Below, in pieces: positions 41,529 to 64,000 of a stretch of 64,000 nt of DNA (position 1 is the first letter of the stretch; every line of letters starts with the position of its first letter). A program made the translations under genes and the position numbers. The notes beneath the pieces are model-generated. The model made no database searches. It worked only from the letters and a program-made list of their open reading frames with translations, and was not told the DNA's origin. Origin of the DNA: a virus; the IMG/VR virus record IMGVR_UViG_3300018059_000012, positions 11,471 to 75,470 of that record; one strand, 5' to 3'.

Positions 41529-41583
41529 ACAGAGCTAGAAGGAATTGGAGGATGTCCAGCGTGGCAATATGGATCTCTCCCCG

Positions 41584-41633
41584 TCTAGAGGGAAAACTTT
41601 CAACTGGGGTCAACCTCTGCCTACTGGGTAGGG
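41584..41633. repeat. Dispersed ~50-bp CTAG element, copy B
   Basis: TCTAGAGGGAAAACTTTCAACTGGGGTCAACCTCTGCCTACTGGGTAGGG, intergenic. Confidence 0.75.
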
Positions 41634-47771: not shown

Positions 47772-50122
47772 TGCCGATCGAGTTCACCCCGTCTAGGCGT
47801 CTTATCGACGCATATCTCAAGCTCAGGAAACGTCTGCGTGGCGAGAACCCTGAAGCCAATCAAATCAAGAGCGAAGCGATCGAAGCTGTGAATGAGGATG
47901 GGACGTACGTCGTTAAGGGTGCCAACATCCCGGCAAGTGGAAACGTGAAGCTTTCGTCAGGACAGCGTGTTGATGTTGTCTTCAAGAATGCCCGCCCACG
48001 TGTGATCGTCGGACACAATGCCCGCCGGGCACACTTTGGTCCTGATGTTGTGCCGATTGGAAATGGTGTCGTCGAAGAATTGTTGATTTTACAGAATCAG
48101 ATCTACTTTCGGAATGACAGGCAGTTCACACAACTAAAGATCAACAATCTTGATATTGAATTCGAATCCCCACCACTTGGTGTCCGCTGGGGATTAGATC
48201 GGCAGCACTTCCATGTTGTCATGGAAAATCACATCTACAACATCTATAAGATCACGCGTGATCCGGCGAAGGTACTGGCGGAGAAAACACCTGTCGTCAA
48301 GTTCATCAAACAGATTGCGCTCGAGACAATGCTCACGACCCTGCTGTTCGAGTTCTTTACATTCTCGATCACAGAGAGTAAGACGTATACAGTTAAGTGG
48401 ATGGTCTTTCCGATTGGCTTCACGACTGATCACGACACGTTGATCTCAGGACCGCATACCTTGGGCACGGCGGTATCTGGAACGTTTACTGTGACACCAC
48501 AGCACTTCATGCACCTCAGTGGTCCTGACATCGGGCAGTTCAAGGAGCTGCTTGGGAACCAGATGATTGTGCGGATCGCCGTTACCGATGTGATCGTCAA
48601 CGCTGATGGGCATCTGATTATCTGTCTCTCGCTTGTGTGCGATACGTGTCCAGGCGATACAGACATTGATCAAGAGCCGTTCGTCTGGGCTCGTCTTGGG
48701 ACACCACCAGGGCCGGATGGGTTCTTGGCGCCAGTAAATCAAGGTCCAGTCGGTGAACCGTTTCTTCTTCCGACGCCACCGATTGATCTGTCTATTGCAT
48801 CGGCCCCAGCATTCGAGCATCATGCATTTTTTATCAATGCGACACTCGAACAAGTCTTGTGGCGGAGTCTACCTCTGTCGTTCACAGCATCACGGTTGGA
48901 ACTCAAAACTGTTTCGGGTCCTGGACACAATGCCTTCAATGTGTTCAATCCGGCGATTGCACTGATTGATCCAGGGTTCGTTGATCCTCTTGCAATCCCG
49001 CCGGACTACTACAGGATTGGGGCGGCACAGTTGGCCATCGCCTCCTCAATCATGTTCAATGTAGGATCGATCAATGATGAGTGGCTCATTGCAGAAGCCT
49101 TTGCCGAGTTTGCAGATTCACCAGCCTTTGAGAGCGAAACGTTTGAAATCAGCACTCCATTGGGGTATACGTTTTTTAACCCAGTGTTGACGCCAGTGAC
49201 TCCGCTTGCCTTGACAGTGCTTGCTTCGTCAGATACTGAGATGGTGTTGGAGCAAGGAATTTGGATACCAACACTACAAGCAGCCACCTATCGACGTATC
49301 AATGTTTCTTCATCGGAGGCGTACGCGGCCCGATATCAGTTGCGCATACTTCGTCTCCTCCGCTGGGACGCGGATCCACTCAAACAGCGTCTTGTGATTG
49401 TGGTGACAGCTGATGTAGCCGACGAACCATTTGTCGGGCAGGTGACACGCCCGGAACGTGTTTGGATCTACATCATCGATGGACAAGGAAAAATTGTTCG
49501 TACCGTACTCAACAACAGGGCTGTGTTCCAGGACTTCCGGTTTACCGTCGAATCGATCACGCCACGACATGTCTTGCTTCAGATCATCTGCACAATCTCT
49601 GATGTCATCAATGATAATCAGTCGTTCCTGTATCTCATTGATCTTGAAACTGGGCTGAACTCAACGGTGACAGGGAACGCTACAGATACTGAGCCAGCAG
49701 TGCTGCTCCAACTCTACGCGTTATGGCCACGCTTTGTCTATAGTGCGGCAGAACCAAAGCGACGATTTCTTGCAAGCGCGTTCAATAAACTTGGCGCGCC
49801 GATATTAAAGTTGACAGCGGCAACAGCAAGCATGACGAATAAACTGATGCCGCCTGCTGATGCCCGACTCAAGCAGGCTGGTGTGTTGATTGACGTTCCA
49901 AAGCAGTTTGTTGCTGAACGGCAGAGTCGATGGGATGCCTGGTTTCAAATTGTTTCCCAGAATATCGAGCTGCCATCGTCCACTGATCTGACAACCTATC
50001 AGATCTTCGAGTGGCAGAGTATGCCACCAATGGATGTCCAGTTGATTACAGATACGCGTTTCATCGGTGTCAGAGAAGCTGGCAAAGCCTTTGACTCTCA
50101 GGTGAAGGTACCGGCAGCATGA
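47771..50122 (+). CDS. Large tail-tip/central fibre protein
   Basis: 783-aa beta-rich ORF at end of tail module. Confidence 0.65.
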   Translation: MPIEFTPSRRLIDAYLKLRKRLRGENPEANQIKSEAIEAVNEDGTYVVKGANIPASGNVKLSSGQRVDVVFKNARPRVIVGHNARRAHFGPDVVPIGNGVVEELLILQNQIYFRNDRQFTQLKINNLDIEFESPPLGVRWGLDRQHFHVVMENHIYNIYKITRDPAKVLAEKTPVVKFIKQIALETMLTTLLFEFFTFSITESKTYTVKWMVFPIGFTTDHDTLISGPHTLGTAVSGTFTVTPQHFMHLSGPDIGQFKELLGNQMIVRIAVTDVIVNADGHLIICLSLVCDTCPGDTDIDQEPFVWARLGTPPGPDGFLAPVNQGPVGEPFLLPTPPIDLSIASAPAFEHHAFFINATLEQVLWRSLPLSFTASRLELKTVSGPGHNAFNVFNPAIALIDPGFVDPLAIPPDYYRIGAAQLAIASSIMFNVGSINDEWLIAEAFAEFADSPAFESETFEISTPLGYTFFNPVLTPVTPLALTVLASSDTEMVLEQGIWIPTLQAATYRRINVSSSEAYAARYQLRILRLLRWDADPLKQRLVIVVTADVADEPFVGQVTRPERVWIYIIDGQGKIVRTVLNNRAVFQDFRFTVESITPRHVLLQIICTISDVINDNQSFLYLIDLETGLNSTVTGNATDTEPAVLLQLYALWPRFVYSAAEPKRRFLASAFNKLGAPILKLTAATASMTNKLMPPADARLKQAGVLIDVPKQFVAERQSRWDAWFQIVSQNIELPSSTDLTTYQIFEWQSMPPMDVQLITDTRFIGVREAGKAFDSQVKVPAA

Positions 50123-50626: not shown

Positions 50627-51145
50627 ATGGCATCATTTGTTCTTGCATATCCGGCGGTCCTGAAGATCGAAGCTGGCTATGTCAACGACCCTAACGATCC
50701 GGGGGGCGAGACAAACTTTGGCATCACGAAGCGGGATCATCCGGATGAGGACATCAAGAACCTGACGAAGGAGCGGGCTATCGCCATCTACAAGGCGAAG
50801 TACTGGGATCCACTTCGCCTTGACTTCATCAACGATCAGGAGATCGCCGACAAGCTGCTCGACATGTCAGTCAATCTAGGAACGGAAACGACTGCTATGC
50901 GGTTGCAGCGTGCGTTGAATTACACGCTCGTCGGTCGTCCAGTCATCATCGATGGTGACATTGGTCCACAGACTCTTGCCGCGATCAACGCGCTGGCGAG
51001 AGTAGCTGCGATCGGCCCAGACCTGGAGACCCTGGGCCTCGCACTCCGCGCCTATCATGCGGCGCGGTATATCGAACTCGTCGAAGGACCAGACCCTCGT
51101 TTCGATACGTTTGCAAAGGGCTGGCTCCGGCGTGCGATGAAGTAA
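50627..51145 (+). CDS. Endolysin, GH108 with PG_binding_3
   Basis: EAGYVNDPNDPGGETNFGIT; LQRAL..IDGDIGPQT; F.KGWLRR. Confidence 0.95.
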   Translation: MASFVLAYPAVLKIEAGYVNDPNDPGGETNFGITKRDHPDEDIKNLTKERAIAIYKAKYWDPLRLDFINDQEIADKLLDMSVNLGTETTAMRLQRALNYTLVGRPVIIDGDIGPQTLAAINALARVAAIGPDLETLGLALRAYHAARYIELVEGPDPRFDTFAKGWLRRAMK

Positions 51146-51168: not shown

Positions 51169-51981
51169 ATGTTCAGCAATCTCAGTCCAACGACGACCCT
51201 GACCATCGCACTGGTGCTCGGGGCCGTGCTCGGGGCTTTCTTCAGGCTCTGGGTCAGTCCGGCATTCGTGACATTCTCCAAGCAGCTCGTCACCGAGATC
51301 GCCTTCAACGGTCTCGCAGCGGTGCTGATCCCACATGCCGGGGCCATCATTCCAGGTCTCGACGTGACCAGCTTACCACCGCTGGCGGCGTTCGCCGTGA
51401 TGGCGTTCATCGCTTCAGGCAGTGGTGACTTCGTGGGGAACATCAGGAAGCTATTCAGTGGTACCAGTACCGGTCTTGCCGGCAAGATCGTGTCATGGAT
51501 CCTGATTGGATTCCTGGCGATCGGGCTGACCACCGCCTGTGCGAGCAGTGGTGTCGGCAAGGCTGTGCAGGCTGCCGATGCGCAGAAGCAACTCGTCGAA
51601 CGAGCAGCGGTGGAGTTCGTCAAGCTGAAGCTTCGGGGTGATCCGCGTATCACACCTGCGGTGTACGAGCAGGGGCGGGCCGCCTACGAGAAGTATCAGG
51701 GTGCGCAGGCAGGTCTTGCGGAGGCCCTGTCATCCTGGAAGGTAGTGAGCAATCCGGAGAACGAGAACAAGCTACAGGCGGCGCTCGCCGAGGTTACGAA
51801 GAACATCGACTTCTACCTCGCTCTCGTCGGCAAGTTCGTCAACCTGGAGGATCTGAAAAAGAAGATCAGCGCTGGGGCGGTGGAGGAAATCAAGACCACC
51901 TCTGCTGCTCCGACCTGGTTCGAGATCTACTACAGCGCGAGCACGGAGCATTTCACACTCGCCGCGCAGGGGAGGTACTAG
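51169..51981 (+). CDS. Holin-like multi-TM domain fused to lipoprotein-like domain
   Basis: Three hydrophobic segments, then KIVSWILIGFLAIGLTTAC and a helical domain. Confidence 0.6.
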   Translation: MFSNLSPTTTLTIALVLGAVLGAFFRLWVSPAFVTFSKQLVTEIAFNGLAAVLIPHAGAIIPGLDVTSLPPLAAFAVMAFIASGSGDFVGNIRKLFSGTSTGLAGKIVSWILIGFLAIGLTTACASSGVGKAVQAADAQKQLVERAAVEFVKLKLRGDPRITPAVYEQGRAAYEKYQGAQAGLAEALSSWKVVSNPENENKLQAALAEVTKNIDFYLALVGKFVNLEDLKKKISAGAVEEIKTTSAAPTWFEIYYSASTEHFTLAAQGRY

Positions 51982-51984
51982 ATC

Positions 51985-52272
51985 ATGGGAGCGGAAGCGG
52001 CAGCAGGACTCATTCTGCAACTGATCGGGCAGGCGTTCGGGGCAGCAAAGAACGCCGGTCTGGTCGGCAACCCCGACTGGGTGAAGTACGTGGAGGCTGG
52101 ACTCTACATGGCCAGCAAGGCGAAGGACATCCTCGGGGACATCTTCTCGAACCCGTCGAAGTACGACAACATGACGCCGGAGCAGATCAAAGCGTTGCTG
52201 ATGCCGAAGACGTGGGACGAGATCGAGATGCAGGCGATGGCAGAGCTGGCCGCTGAAGGCAGTGGCGGGTAG
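51985..52272 (+). CDS. Lysis-cassette accessory protein
   Basis: GGAGG SD; amphipathic N-terminus. Confidence 0.65.
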   Translation: MGAEAAAGLILQLIGQAFGAAKNAGLVGNPDWVKYVEAGLYMASKAKDILGDIFSNPSKYDNMTPEQIKALLMPKTWDEIEMQAMAELAAEGSGG

Positions 52273-52289
52273 CAGGGCAATCCACGACG

Positions 52290-52321
52290 GCACCGCCCGG
52301 TGATGTCAGGCCGGGCGGTGC
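52290..52321 (+). terminator. Intergenic hairpin
   Basis: GCACCGCCCGGT/GCCGGGCGGTGC. Confidence 0.5.
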
Positions 52322-52331
52322 ATGGGAGAGC

Positions 52332-52736
52332 ATGATGGGAAAGAAAGTGGTTGTAGCACCGGTCCCACCCAAGGCGTCGCTCTCTGATCTGTGGGAGCAG
52401 TTCGGATCCCTCGGGCAGGGCATTGTTAAGATCGGCGTGGCGGTCGCGATGCTCTACTCGCTGTATCTGTGGGGATCTGGCAAGATCGTTTGGGCTGATG
52501 AGCTCACCCAGCTTGTCGCGGATTTTACCTGTCAGTTTGCGGATATTAAACGGACGCAACTCGAAGGGCAGGCCGCTGATCTGCAATTCCGTATCAATCA
52601 GCTGAGTGGACGGAAAGCGTTGACAGCTGATGAATCGCGCGACATCGCACTGCTCAACGTGCGACTCAGCAGCATTCAAAATCAAATCAACAAACTTCCT
52701 GATTGCGCCCGCGGATCACAGCAGCAGCGTCGCTAG
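52332..52736 (+). CDS. Membrane-anchored coiled-coil protein (i-spanin-like)
   Basis: One TM then heptads with two Cys; in lysis cassette. Confidence 0.55.
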   Translation: MMGKKVVVAPVPPKASLSDLWEQFGSLGQGIVKIGVAVAMLYSLYLWGSGKIVWADELTQLVADFTCQFADIKRTQLEGQAADLQFRINQLSGRKALTADESRDIALLNVRLSSIQNQINKLPDCARGSQQQRR

Positions 52737-52741
52737 TTCTC

Positions 52742-52772
52742 TCCCCTAGACTCCCCGTCTAGGGGATCTCTT
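52742..52772 (+). terminator. Hairpin ending the late operon; overlaps partial CTAG element copy D
   Basis: TCCCCTAGAC/GTCTAGGGGA followed by TCTCTT. Confidence 0.6.
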
Positions 52773-52806
52773 CAAAAACCCCTGATTTTCAGCGGGGAGT
52801 GTGTTG

Positions 52807-52819
52807 TAAGTGCTTGATA
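52807..52819 (-). promoter_or_regulatory. IHF consensus site
   Basis: TAAGTGCTTGATA is the reverse complement of a WATCAANNNNTTR match. Confidence 0.6.
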
Positions 52820-52848
52820 TATTCCACCAAAATGGACACACTTAGAAG

Positions 52849-52878
52849 TGGACATCATGTATCCTTATATGGGATGAT
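52849..52878 (+). promoter_or_regulatory. Candidate early promoter overlapping an inverted repeat
   Basis: TGGACA-18-GATGAT with TG extension; ACATCAT/ATGATGT dyad; AT-rich context. Confidence 0.35.
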
Positions 52879-52889
52879 GTTTCCGTAGG

Positions 52890-53523
52890 GTAGCAAAGGG
52901 ATCTAGGAAAGTAAGCCTGGTAACTCCTAGACAGCCTGGAACTAAGACCGGGGCAGCGAGTCGGAGGAGAGAACACGAAGTCAAGACACTCTCCCCGAAC
53001 AAACCGAGATCAGTACCGCGATGGGGCCAGCACAAGCCGACTACTCTCCGAGTCAGGGAGACAGGCGAGTCGAACCCCAGGAGATAGTAGGCGACGACCC
53101 AAGATCTTCGAGGCCCCAGGCGGGGCGAGTCGGAGAAGGGCACGCGGGGGAAACGGGCGGCAGCCCAAAACCAGCTACTCGGGATCGAGGACCCTAGCCG
53201 GGGCCGATCAACTGAAGGATCCGATACGGCAGCGGTAGCGCCGCCGGGTAGTCCTTCGGGGAGCATGACCACACTGGTCGGCTTCGTTCTCTCTTCGCGA
53301 TGGGGACATCGCGGAATTCTTCCGACGCATCCTACTGACGATAGCGACACCGCCTCCGACAGCCGCAGCACCTCACGCCATCACGGCGACATACCCTCAC
53401 ACTCGCTCAGACCGATCGCTACGGACCTTGAAGCCGGGCGACGTTCAGGACTGGAGTAGTCGGCGGAACGCAGAGAGGACGACTCCGACGCCGCGATGAC
53501 AAGCGAGCGTGGTCATGATGGTC
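52890..53523 (+). ncRNA. Large structured ncRNA or leader (~640 nt), unknown family
   Basis: Nested long-range helices and many hairpins including a GGGA tetraloop; no credible ORF. Confidence 0.7.
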
Positions 53524-53576
53524 TCAGGGTACATCCCTGACTGACGAGGGCCTCAGCAAGGCCGAAACCAAACCAC
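53509..53576 (+). ncRNA. Type III hammerhead ribozyme, predicted cleavage after C53523
   Basis: UGGUC^ UCAGGG-uacau-CCCUGA CUGACGA G GGCCU-cagca-AGGCC GAAA CCA; full core present. Confidence 0.9.
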
Positions 53577-53599
53577 TCTATCTGAGGAGGATACACATC

Positions 53600-53869
53600 A
53601 TGGGTAAGCAGAACCGCAATCCAGCTCGCAAGTACAAGGCGCTCACCGACAAGCAGAAGGCCGATGTGGCCAAGCAGTTCGAGAACCTGATGTTCAGGTT
53701 CTTGCCGATAGGTAACACCAAGTCCGAGTGCCTGCTCTCCCTTACGCAGGTCGAGTCGATCGTCAACGGATGCATCAAGATCGAGCGGGCGGAGATTCAT
53801 GCCGAGTTCGAGCCCGAGCCGCTGACCAGGCTCAAGCGCAAGGCCGGGGCGCTGCTGAGCAATAGATAG
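53600..53869 (+). CDS. Early hypothetical protein
   Basis: GAGGAGG SD directly after the ribozyme. Confidence 0.75.
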   Translation: MGKQNRNPARKYKALTDKQKADVAKQFENLMFRFLPIGNTKSECLLSLTQVESIVNGCIKIERAEIHAEFEPEPLTRLKRKAGALLSNR

Positions 53870-54134: not shown

Positions 54135-54181
54135 ATCTCATGCAGTACGACCACTACTCAACCAATCAAGGAGACAACACC

Positions 54182-61895: not shown

Positions 61896-62351
61896 ATTTC
61901 ACATATCGTGAGGACCACCGCAGAGATCAAGAGTCGGGAACAGCTCGAGCGGGCGCTGAGCAGTCTCGGCTGGACAGTGAATGAGAACGCCAAGCCCCGC
62001 TACTACTACAGCGGCAGCGGCGTATACGGGAACGAGTCAGTGCTCTGCGACTACGTCGTGGAGCTGCCAGGCAAGTACGACCTCGGTCTCAAGCAGGATC
62101 TCGATGGCAAGTGGCATTTCATCTGTGACTCAGAGTTGCTGCGAGGCAACTACGGCCGTGGGTCACAGGGTCGAGCGATCGTCGGTGAGGAGGCGGTGAA
62201 CCTGACTCAGGCTCTCGGCGAGGTCGAGGTCGAGATGATGCTGGAATCGAAGGGCATCAGCTACAACAAGATCATCGTGAACGGGCAGACGGAGTACGAG
62301 ATCGACACGGAGTCTCAGCAGGTACGCGATCAGGTCGCGCTCAGCGCCTAG
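61896..62351 (+). CDS. DUF1257 (Ycf35-like) protein, probable ATT start
   Basis: (M)SHIV....EIK....L..AL..LG...YDLGL...G......D. Confidence 0.8.
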   Translation: MSHIVRTTAEIKSREQLERALSSLGWTVNENAKPRYYYSGSGVYGNESVLCDYVVELPGKYDLGLKQDLDGKWHFICDSELLRGNYGRGSQGRAIVGEEAVNLTQALGEVEVEMMLESKGISYNKIIVNGQTEYEIDTESQQVRDQVALSA

Positions 62352-62393
62352 GAGATCTCCTAGGACTCTCAGGAACCCCCAGAAAGTGTGTCC

Positions 62394-62483
62394 TAAGTAG
62401 GTGATTTTATAGGTCAAAAACGGCTCATCTAGAGGGGGGTGGGAGACCCTCAGGCTAGGCAGCCTTGATAAATCAGGTACTTA
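62394..62483. promoter_or_regulatory. Pair of IHF-like sites in CTAG-rich intergenic region
   Basis: TAAGTAGGTGATT (62394) and AATCAGGTACTTA (62471), in opposite orientation. Confidence 0.5.
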
Positions 62484-62510
62484 TACGGCACTCCTGGGGT
62501 ATCCCCTGAG

Positions 62511-62559
62511 TCTAGGGGAGAACGATCAACCTGGGTCAACCTCTGACCCCTGGCTAGGG
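62511..62559. repeat. Dispersed ~50-bp CTAG element, copy C
   Basis: TCTAGGGGAGAACGATCAACCTGGGTCAACCTCTGACCCCTGGCTAGGG. Confidence 0.75.
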
Positions 62560-62605
62560 CGGGTAGGCTCCACGCTAGGGCCATAGACGACTGGGAGAGA
62601 ATCCT

Positions 62606-62794
62606 ATGGGCAGCAAAGTCCGGATCACGGTGAAGGGCGGTAAGATCGCGACGGCGGCGGAAGGGTACGTCGGCACCGGCTGCGAGAAGGATGTCGAGTT
62701 CTTCGCGAAGTCACTCGGTGGTGAGCAGCGCGAAGCAACGCATACGCCGACGTACTACGAGACGCCGGAGCAGTCGCAGGAGAACGAGCGGTGA
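62606..62794 (+). CDS. DUF2997 protein
   Basis: I.V..G.I....EG..G..C......K.LG.......P.YY. Confidence 0.8.
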   Translation: MGSKVRITVKGGKIATAAEGYVGTGCEKDVEFFAKSLGGEQREATHTPTYYETPEQSQENER

Positions 62795-63040
62795 AAAAGA
62801 AACCGCGGGTGGCACAATGCTGGCAGTGCAAGAGCAAGCTGGTCAAGGGCGTCTGCCCAAAGAACTGCGGGCCGAAGGCGCTCGGTGATCTCCTGAGAAT
62901 CGGGTGATGAGCATCAGAGCAGGTGTGACCATCATGTTCCTGGTAGCCTGTATGGCCATGATCGTTGATGGGACGAAGGTCGCGGGTGTCTTCGTTCTCA
63001 TCGTCTACGGCGGTGCCTATCTTATCAGACGAGGTCAGCG

Positions 63041-63277
63041 ATGAAACACAAGATCGTCGTCAGAGCTGGTACGATCACGACGCGCTACACGGAGTCCCTG
63101 CCCGTCGCGGATCTCGGTGGGCAGGCGGTGATCGAACGCGCTGCTGAAGTGGAGTGGTCACCAGTGGCGAAGGGCTGGACCGTTCAGCTGGTCGATGGGC
63201 CGGTACTCCCCGGCGCCTGGACGAGTCGGCAGCAGGCGCTGGACGCCGAGATCGAGGCCGTCGATGCCCGCCTCTAA
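63041..63277 (+). CDS. Conserved small protein of AAA/DUF1257/DUF2997 clusters
   Basis: Y.E.L...DLG....I.RA..VE....GW.V....GP.L......R..AL.AE. Confidence 0.7.
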   Translation: MKHKIVVRAGTITTRYTESLPVADLGGQAVIERAAEVEWSPVAKGWTVQLVDGPVLPGAWTSRQQALDAEIEAVDARL

Positions 63278-63329
63278 GTTCACCCGTGCAGACTGTCGCG
63301 GCGGTAAGGCGTGCATCAAGGAGGACATG

Positions 63330-64000
63330 AAGCACGCAATGAAAATCGTCAAGACGGAGAAGATCAAAAATATTTTTCCCAAACGTTGCTCGGCTACATA
63401 CTGCTCTTCAAAACCTTCTTCCAAAAATTTATATTCAAACGGCATCGCCGGCGCAAATGCCTTCCAGTCGGATTCCAACAGCTTAATGCTGCTTTCCAGA
63501 TCGGCGCGCGGAACGCGAACGACGATGCAAGAATTTGGAATTTCGTAAGATTGCGATTTGTGATGAAACAACGCAAAAGGTGAAATCGGCGAATGCAGCG
63601 TCACGAAATTGAAGTCTTTCATCACACCGATGACTTTATACTCTCGATTGTCGCCGCCGGGATAAGTGAGAATTTTGCCAAGTGGATCATCCCAACCGAA
63701 ATACTTCATCGCCGATTCATTCAAAAGCACGCCATCGACATCAGTGGAAAATTGTTTTGAAAAGCCGCGGCCTTTAACGATCTCGATACCGAGCGTGGCG
63801 AGAAAATCATTGTCGGCCATATAAGAATTCAATTGAATATCGATTTGCTCTCCGCCTTTGCCCTCGGCATTGTAAGAATCCTCAAAACCAAAATACGGCG
63901 GGACGGCGGTGGCAATCGAGGCGTTGATAAAGCGGGAATTGCTTTTCAGTTTTTCCTTAAATGCCTCTGCTTGATTGCCCAGCCGGTGATTTTCATTCGA
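63330..64000 (-). pseudogene. MacB/FtsX-family ABC transporter permease, bacterial; 3'-truncated at the junction and running off the window end
   Basis: GRGFS, LLNESA...GW.DPLGK, VIGVMKDFNF..LH..I.P, PFEY.FL, FSVLTIFIAC; expected LGL continuation is lost; lower GC. Confidence 0.9.

Follow-up and report, generated by a model that had tools for sequence, protein, structure and literature searches.

A conserved non-coding leader with a predicted terminal hammerhead ribozyme ahead of the first early gene of a phage

What is specified by a gene-free gap of 860 bases that separates the lysis genes of a phage from its small early-type genes and that ends in a motif expected of a self-cleaving RNA? 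The locus that raises this question was analyzed within a window of 64,000 nt, corresponding to positions 11471-75470 of an IMG/VR virus record of 75.5 kb (IMGVR_UViG_3300018059_000012). All genes in the window are oriented rightward, and its late genes encode terminase, portal, head, tape-measure, and tail functions. The endolysin gene (50627-51145, + strand) is followed by three small genes without an assigned family, the last of which ends at 52736; downstream of the gap are many small early-type genes with shared leaders, the first one starting at 53600. The gap (52737-53599) is, as had been claimed before, the biggest gene-free stretch of the window. Cultured phages showed no more than 34% identity in the terminase, and blastn and tblastn searches of phage GenBank sequences for homologues of the region returned nothing close. 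Our preferred reading, to which we assign a probability of roughly 0.55 as a whole, is that the gap comprises a promoter and an untranslated leader RNA of ~640 nt belonging to the early operon, with a hammerhead that would cut this leader from the early mRNA.

A search of IMG/VR with the region recovered a single relative, IMGVR_UViG_3300037424_000553 (97 kb; G001 hereafter), together with chance matches (L005 and L052-L054). At the upstream side of the gap, an inverted-repeat and terminator scan placed two terminator-like hairpins on the + strand (52742-52766 and 52780-52797) after the last late (lysis-region) gene, and both were retained in G001 with changed sequence. The CTCCCCGTCTAG word of the terminator-like hairpin (52738-52766) recurs after the tape-measure gene (41574-41588) and at 47787-47797, and these repeats may represent a repeated terminator or intergenic element. 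AT-rich composition was found within the gap only at 52798-52880, and this conserved block likely harbors the early promoter on the + strand, with a putative start site, as judged from composition, a promoter-like match, and conservation. Within the block are TAAGTGCTTGATAT (52807-52820), a pair of TGGACA repeats, and a sequence (52849-52878) that matches the sigma-70 type, albeit not well; the block was conserved in G001 and, for the 52807-52837 part, in L019, a metagenome contig that is more distant. No sigma-70-like site was placed inside the leader core by the promoter scan. Downstream of the block, a 5' hairpin (52902-52931, + strand) carries a 16-nt loop (AAGUAAGCCUGGUAAC) on a 7-bp stem that reads TCTAGGA/TCCTAGA in the window and GGCTAGA/TCTAGCC in G001, indels having rebuilt the stem around an identical loop.

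Sequence comparison marked the leader as a non-coding RNA region that is conserved and rich in hairpins. Its identity to G001 was 85-96% per 100 nt (53001-53577), compared with 72-86% between the window and G001 genomes elsewhere and 70-75%, with many indels, in the spacer at 52701-53000. The upstream coding genes (51200-52700) were 86-99% identical and the endolysin gene (from 50600) 56-74% identical, and the resulting block of high identity spans 2.4 kb (51200-53577), coding genes included. Within the leader, every frame is shifted by indels (4, 1, and 1 nt), and the two phages do not share the same open frames; long spurious frames are expected here because a T content of 13% makes stop codons rare. 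No Pfam or PHROG family was matched in the leader, and small conserved open reading frames (ORFs) were rejected as candidates, with no frame kept and no Pfam match. A distant relative in the ATPase (L051) had neither such a gap nor a ribozyme, and the metagenome search yielded a 2843-nt contig that ends ~140 nt past the upstream gene. The protein encoded by that upstream gene also has relatives (P0002, P0004, and P0005) at 59-78% identity, the latter two on contigs of 14.6 and 5.2 kb.

At the downstream side, the homology between the window and G001 runs as far as 53577, just past the ribozyme and an ACCACU box, and the gene that follows is unrelated in the two phages. This box opens the short leader of the first early gene (53572-53602, + strand), where it is followed by the SD GAGGAGGA (53583-90) and the ATG at 53600. 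ACCACU is shared by five early-gene leaders (53572, 54150, 55572, 56239, and 57199), in which it is followed by 8-17 nt, an AAGGAG-like SD, a CA-rich spacer, and ATG. A further 36 nt of homology to G001 lie at the second box (54139-54174), and because homology stops at the first box and returns at the second, the boxes look like junctions at which gene cassettes are swapped.

The mosaic character of these genomes bears on an alternative in which only the hammerhead matters, the 600 nt ahead of it being a passive 5' leader with incidental hairpins that owes its similarity to the recombined 2.4-kb block. Recent exchange may contribute to the high identity of the leader, given that high identity continues over the coding genes at 51200-52700 and that breakpoints lie at the leader boxes. 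The overall fold stability of the region was likewise not above that of shuffled sequences (minimum free energy [MFE] z, -0.97 for the + strand and 0.0 for the - strand). However, a single recent transfer leaves the diverged spacer unexplained, because 52701-53000 (70-75%) and 53001-53182 (99%) lie side by side inside the same block. Moreover, the substitutions in the leader fall in loops or are compensated, and a useless 600 nt would seldom be kept by phages. We therefore consider a passive leader unlikely and retain the reading of a promoter, a conserved leader RNA, and a terminal hammerhead.

Support for a shared fold of this leader on the + strand was modest, suggestive rather than decisive, as drawn from two sequences that are ~93% identical. 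The RNAalifold consensus contained three compensatory pairs (52961/52999, 53186/53206, and 53284/53482), and two stems, the 5' hairpin at 52902-52931 and the tip of hairpin D, had been rebuilt by indels. Against a null model with random placement of the same substitutions on the + strand, the consensus energy gave a z of -4.2 (0/150), with a P of 0.49 for the compensatory pairs. Under a null that preserved clusters, the + strand consensus energy gave a z of -1.8 (P, 0.04) with 3 compensatory pairs versus 1.06 expected (P, 0.13), and the - strand gave a z of -1.2 (P, 0.125). Local hairpins reached z values of -2.3 to -4.3, equal in both phages wherever both were folded.

The individual elements, all on the + strand, begin with hairpin A (52960-53000; z, -2.3 in both phages), which extends a GGAGAG/CUCUCC core and keeps its stem in G001 with a variable loop, the pair 52961/52999 having changed from U-A to C-G. 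It is followed by the most conserved core block in the alignments (53001-53182), which differs from G001 by 2 substitutions and one 4-nt insertion in 182 nt. Of the three GCGAGUCG copies, two lie in this block, together with predicted small GC-rich hairpins. All five differences in hairpin C (53183-53209) are compatible with the hairpin, two of them forming the compensatory change at 53186/53206 (C-G to U-A) and the other three lying in the loop. Hairpin D (53212-53259), formed by CUGAAGGAU/GUCCUUCGG, contains two G.U pairs and is extended by a segment with a GGUA tip; it has a z of -3.2 in both phages despite a rewritten tip (53224-53244), with a pairing probability of 0.82. A 3' domain is predicted at 53264-53517 from pairing probabilities of ~0.74. 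Its predicted interior holds a 15-bp helix (53277-93/53473-89) in which 53284/53482 changes from U-A to C-G, a hairpin with a GGGA loop (53294-53315; z, -4.3), and a C-rich stretch. Because the consensus puts the closing helix of this domain (53264-75/53506-17) beside stem III of the hammerhead, the 3' domain may be closed, with the ribozyme at its base. The C-rich, G-poor stretch (~53345-53415; 25 C and 9 G in 53350-53399) belongs to untranslated RNA, is predicted to be mostly unpaired, and resembles a Rho loading site.

The original prediction had cast the gap as a large non-coding + strand RNA of nested long-range helices ending in a hammerhead, and its parts fared differently. Every sequence motif that it quoted was present where it had been placed, and the local hairpins at 53212-53259, 53294-53315, and 52960-53000 proved real and stable by their z scores. 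The G.U pairs that it took as a sign of the + strand number three in the two best hairpins and would read as A.C mismatches if the other strand were the RNA. The absence of a protein-coding signal likewise held, with no frame kept between the two phages and no Pfam or PHROG match. Neither a tRNA nor a transfer-messenger RNA (tmRNA) was found by ARAGORN, in agreement with the claim that tmRNA, RNase P, and group I/II introns are missing, and the proposed cmscan check against Rfam showed no family matched by the large RNA, whether at the gathering score or at an E value of 10. The models left unmatched at the gathering score or at E values up to 10 were those of GOLLD, ROOL, HEARO, OLE, raiA, RNase P, tmRNA, and group I/II introns. 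What stands is a conserved, non-coding region with a complete hammerhead motif at its end; what found no support is the nested-helix architecture. The three long-range helices (53036-46/53454-64, 53086-91/53331-36, and 53129-34/53321-26) each had a pairing probability of 0.00, and enforcing them cost +14.4 kcal/mol. A perfect 11-nt inverted repeat such as the longest of them appeared in 6% of dinucleotide shuffles (P, 0.06), and arms of 6 nt are to be expected by chance.

It is accordingly quite improbable that the region is a GOLLD/ROOL-type RNA built on these nested helices and released by the hammerhead as a scaffold, sponge, or decoy. The arms do exist and are perfectly complementary, and the size, phage origin, and non-coding nature of the region resemble those of known large phage-associated RNAs. 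All arms (53036-53464) are also invariant in G001, the sole homologue, and hence offer no variation in which covariation could appear. Nevertheless, the RNAalifold consensus pairs them with other partners, in one case with a compensatory change, no large-RNA model in Rfam was matched, and neither GGA nor SD-like sponge motifs were enriched. A sponge for CsrA or ribosomes was rejected as a separate candidate with GGA, GGAG, and AGGA all unenriched. Three further structural candidates were discarded: helix I13 (52960-67/53353-60) was broken in G001, and neither an 11-nt GAAA receptor nor a kissing interaction of the loop at 52909-24 with 53116-21 was conserved or above chance.

The repeats of the leader could also be read at the level of DNA. 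The leader (52940-53523) is G+C-rich and strand-asymmetric, with 13% T versus 19% in the window, only 9% T in 52950-53250, and 24% A; as RNA, a leader so poor in U would present few RNase E sites. In the stretches 52956-53146 and 53320-53491, the GCGAGTCG motif occurs in three copies versus 0.03 expected, its partial complement TCCGAC in three copies versus 0.4 expected, and a 22-nt segment is duplicated (52956-77 and 53125-46). Two of these repeat copies are altered in G001. The repeats may allow alternative pairings or mark binding sites. No tandem repeats were found in the leader.

If GCGAGTCG and TCCGAC were protein-binding sites, the gap might instead be a DNA element, such as a replication origin, a packaging site, or an operator array at the junction of late and early genes. 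The excess of both motifs, the internal duplication, the strong conservation of a non-coding primary sequence, and the position between operons are in line with such an element. Yet a G+C-rich, T-poor sequence with more A than T is unlike origins or promoter arrays, the G.U pairs fit RNA, as do the better statistics of the + strand, tandem repeats are missing, and the block is contiguous and co-conserved with the ribozyme. The ends of the two contigs also point away from the gap. The G001 contig is circularly permuted relative to the window, with its break near window position 61990, and the window record stops at 64000; because both fall there, a physical genome end or repeat may lie near ~61950-64000 rather than at the RNA gap. 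A DNA-level function thus has a low probability in our judgment, and the leader is treated in the following as the RNA portion of a promoter-leader-hammerhead unit.

The end of the leader is formed by a type III hammerhead motif (53519-53570, + strand) with a predicted cut after C53523. It is built from stem III (53519-22/53567-70, 4 bp), U16.1-C17 at the cut site (53522-23), stem I (53524-29/53535-40, 6 bp), CUGACGA (53541-47), stem II (GG(G)CC/GGCC; 53548-52/53560-63; 4 bp with one bulged G), and GAAA (53564-67). The consensus core is present throughout, with C3 U4 G5 A6 N7 G8 A9, G12 A13 A14, A15.1-U16.1, and H17 at the cut site. The pairs next to the core are standard (1.1-2.1 U-A, 10.1-11.1 G-C, and 15.1-16.1 A-U), and stems I and II are closed and stem III is open. 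These are the features by which hammerheads were accepted in an earlier survey (Perreault et al. 2011, PMC3088659), and all of them were found here. The order given in the original prediction, a complete hammerhead followed by a strong SD and the first early gene, was likewise confirmed, with the complete core at 53519-53570, GAGGAGGA at 53583-90, and the ATG at 53600.

A descriptor scan detected one full hammerhead in 128 kb, against a chance expectation of 0.0075 under loose limits, and none of 400 shuffles gave a hammerhead match at the strict (observed) stem lengths. At the Rfam gathering score, nothing in the window matched; in E-value mode, Hammerhead_3 matched 53522-53567 with 15.5 bits versus a cut-off of 48.5, a level at which 7 of 14 control genomes also scored hammerhead matches, and the G001 copy was not reported at an E value of 10. 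The motif of G001, the one homologue, has C replaced by G at N7 and four changed positions in loop II, is otherwise identical, and folds as a three-way junction at the MFE. A 3-bp UAC/GUA contact between loops I and II is possible in G001 and not in the window copy, and in the ensemble of the full-length RNA the probability of stem III was 0.03. Bacterial genomes, when scanned, yielded 29 partial matches to the core, about the chance number, none of which was a complete hammerhead or a homologue. The window (64 kb) and G001 each gave one motif only; a second candidate at CTGACGA (53335-41) was rejected, its A9 being changed in G001 and GAAA being absent.

Taken together, the motif is a credible hammerhead that is predicted to cut itself. 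That it is inactive or a chance look-alike, so that the leader would stay on the early mRNA, is very improbable: a score below the Rfam cut-off and at the level of control genomes, the bulged G of stem II, the 4-bp stem III, the loop contact that is not conserved, and the low stem III probability in the full-length ensemble would be in keeping with such a view, but the full consensus core with correct neighboring pairs, the rarity of matches in shuffles (0.0075 per 128 kb), the failure of any of the 29 bacterial partial matches to complete the motif, the restriction of G001 variation to two freely variable places, and a position directly before a gene that is the typical phage context (PMC3088659) argue against it.

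In the mechanism that we propose, transcription would start in the AT-rich block at ~52800-52880, proceed rightward, and pass through a U-poor, G+C-rich RNA of several stable hairpins. The type III hammerhead at the end of this leader would then cut after C53523. The 5' product would be the leader with a 2',3'-cyclic phosphate end, and the 3' product would be an early mRNA with a 5'-OH at its start, followed by the compact fold of the ribozyme, two tight hairpins that lie ~30 nt ahead of the first SD, GAGGAGGA. Because the complete core directly precedes the first early gene, cleavage into a leader and a 5'-OH early mRNA is the natural expectation, although transcription, cleavage, and promoter position are each something that we infer from the DNA sequence. 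Among the 55 non-structural ORFs, no member of an RNA ligase, kinase, or RNA-binding family was found.

As to what the leader would do, a constitutive ribozyme would sever the leader from the downstream message at once, and the leader sequence is strongly conserved; for these reasons, we consider it more plausible that the leader would act after its release, as a free RNA, or would modify the polymerase co-transcriptionally than that it would control the downstream mRNA. A bolder proposal, which we advance tentatively and hold to be possible rather than probable, is that the leader represents a distinct class of ~600-nt phage RNA that is made from the strongest early promoter, is released by the hammerhead, and binds a protein or modifies the polymerase during host takeover. 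Phages may also use this arrangement, in which a long conserved leader of the first early operon ends in a hammerhead, as a recurrent strategy.

For the question of what bacterial and phage hammerheads do, this locus offers one at a defined site, between a conserved 600-nt non-coding RNA and the first early gene. If our reading is true, a single promoter yields both a free RNA and a 5'-OH mRNA. Should the freed leader be stable and functional, it would join the very short list of large phage non-coding RNAs and would do so with a link to a ribozyme; should it be passive, the locus would hold an ordinary phage hammerhead.

Hammerheads in phage intergenic regions are an arrangement that has already been described, and those of phages and prophages process polycistronic transcripts (Perreault et al. 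2011, PMC3088659; Rfam RF00008, clan CL00010). The motif reported here resembles them in its consensus core, its three helices, its intergenic phage site upstream of a gene, and its presumed cutting of a long phage transcript. It differs from the described clusters (PMC3088659) in being a single ribozyme rather than one of several that flank genes, and it ends a conserved non-coding RNA of 600 nt instead of separating two genes, with a score below the Rfam gathering threshold. In the VIPR ribozyme-vrRNA arrays, a phage non-coding RNA has its ends set by hammerheads (bioRxiv 10.64898/2026.04.26.720920). The leader shares with the vrRNA a phage origin, a non-coding nature, and an end that would be set by a hammerhead, but it is ~6 times longer, and a Vipr-like gene was not noticed nearby. 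A vrRNA of this kind was rejected as a candidate with no run of at least 4 YNNGG units on either strand, the VIPR tracts having 9-16 repeats.

With GOLLD and ROOL in Rfam, the leader has in common its size of ~600 nt, its phage origin, and its non-coding nature. Unlike those families, it matched no covariance model at an E value of 10, gave no evidence of a complex conserved fold, and has two known members. To our knowledge, no ribozyme is part of either family.

The early leader of phage T7, where the RNase III site R0.3 lies ahead of gene 0.3, offers a parallel in arrangement. In both cases, a long non-coding leader lies between the early promoter or promoters and the first early gene, with an endonucleolytic cut (predicted here) before the first SD. 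Here, however, the RNA would cut itself rather than be cut by the RNase III of the host, and the leader is conserved and without recognizable internal promoters. In the RiboJ-type insulators used in synthetic biology, a hammerhead placed between a 5' leader and the SD leaves a defined 5'-OH and a hairpin on the mRNA. The phage locus has the same arrangement, a hammerhead between a leader and a ribosome-binding site, but it is natural and phage-borne, and the part that would be discarded is a conserved RNA of 600 nt.
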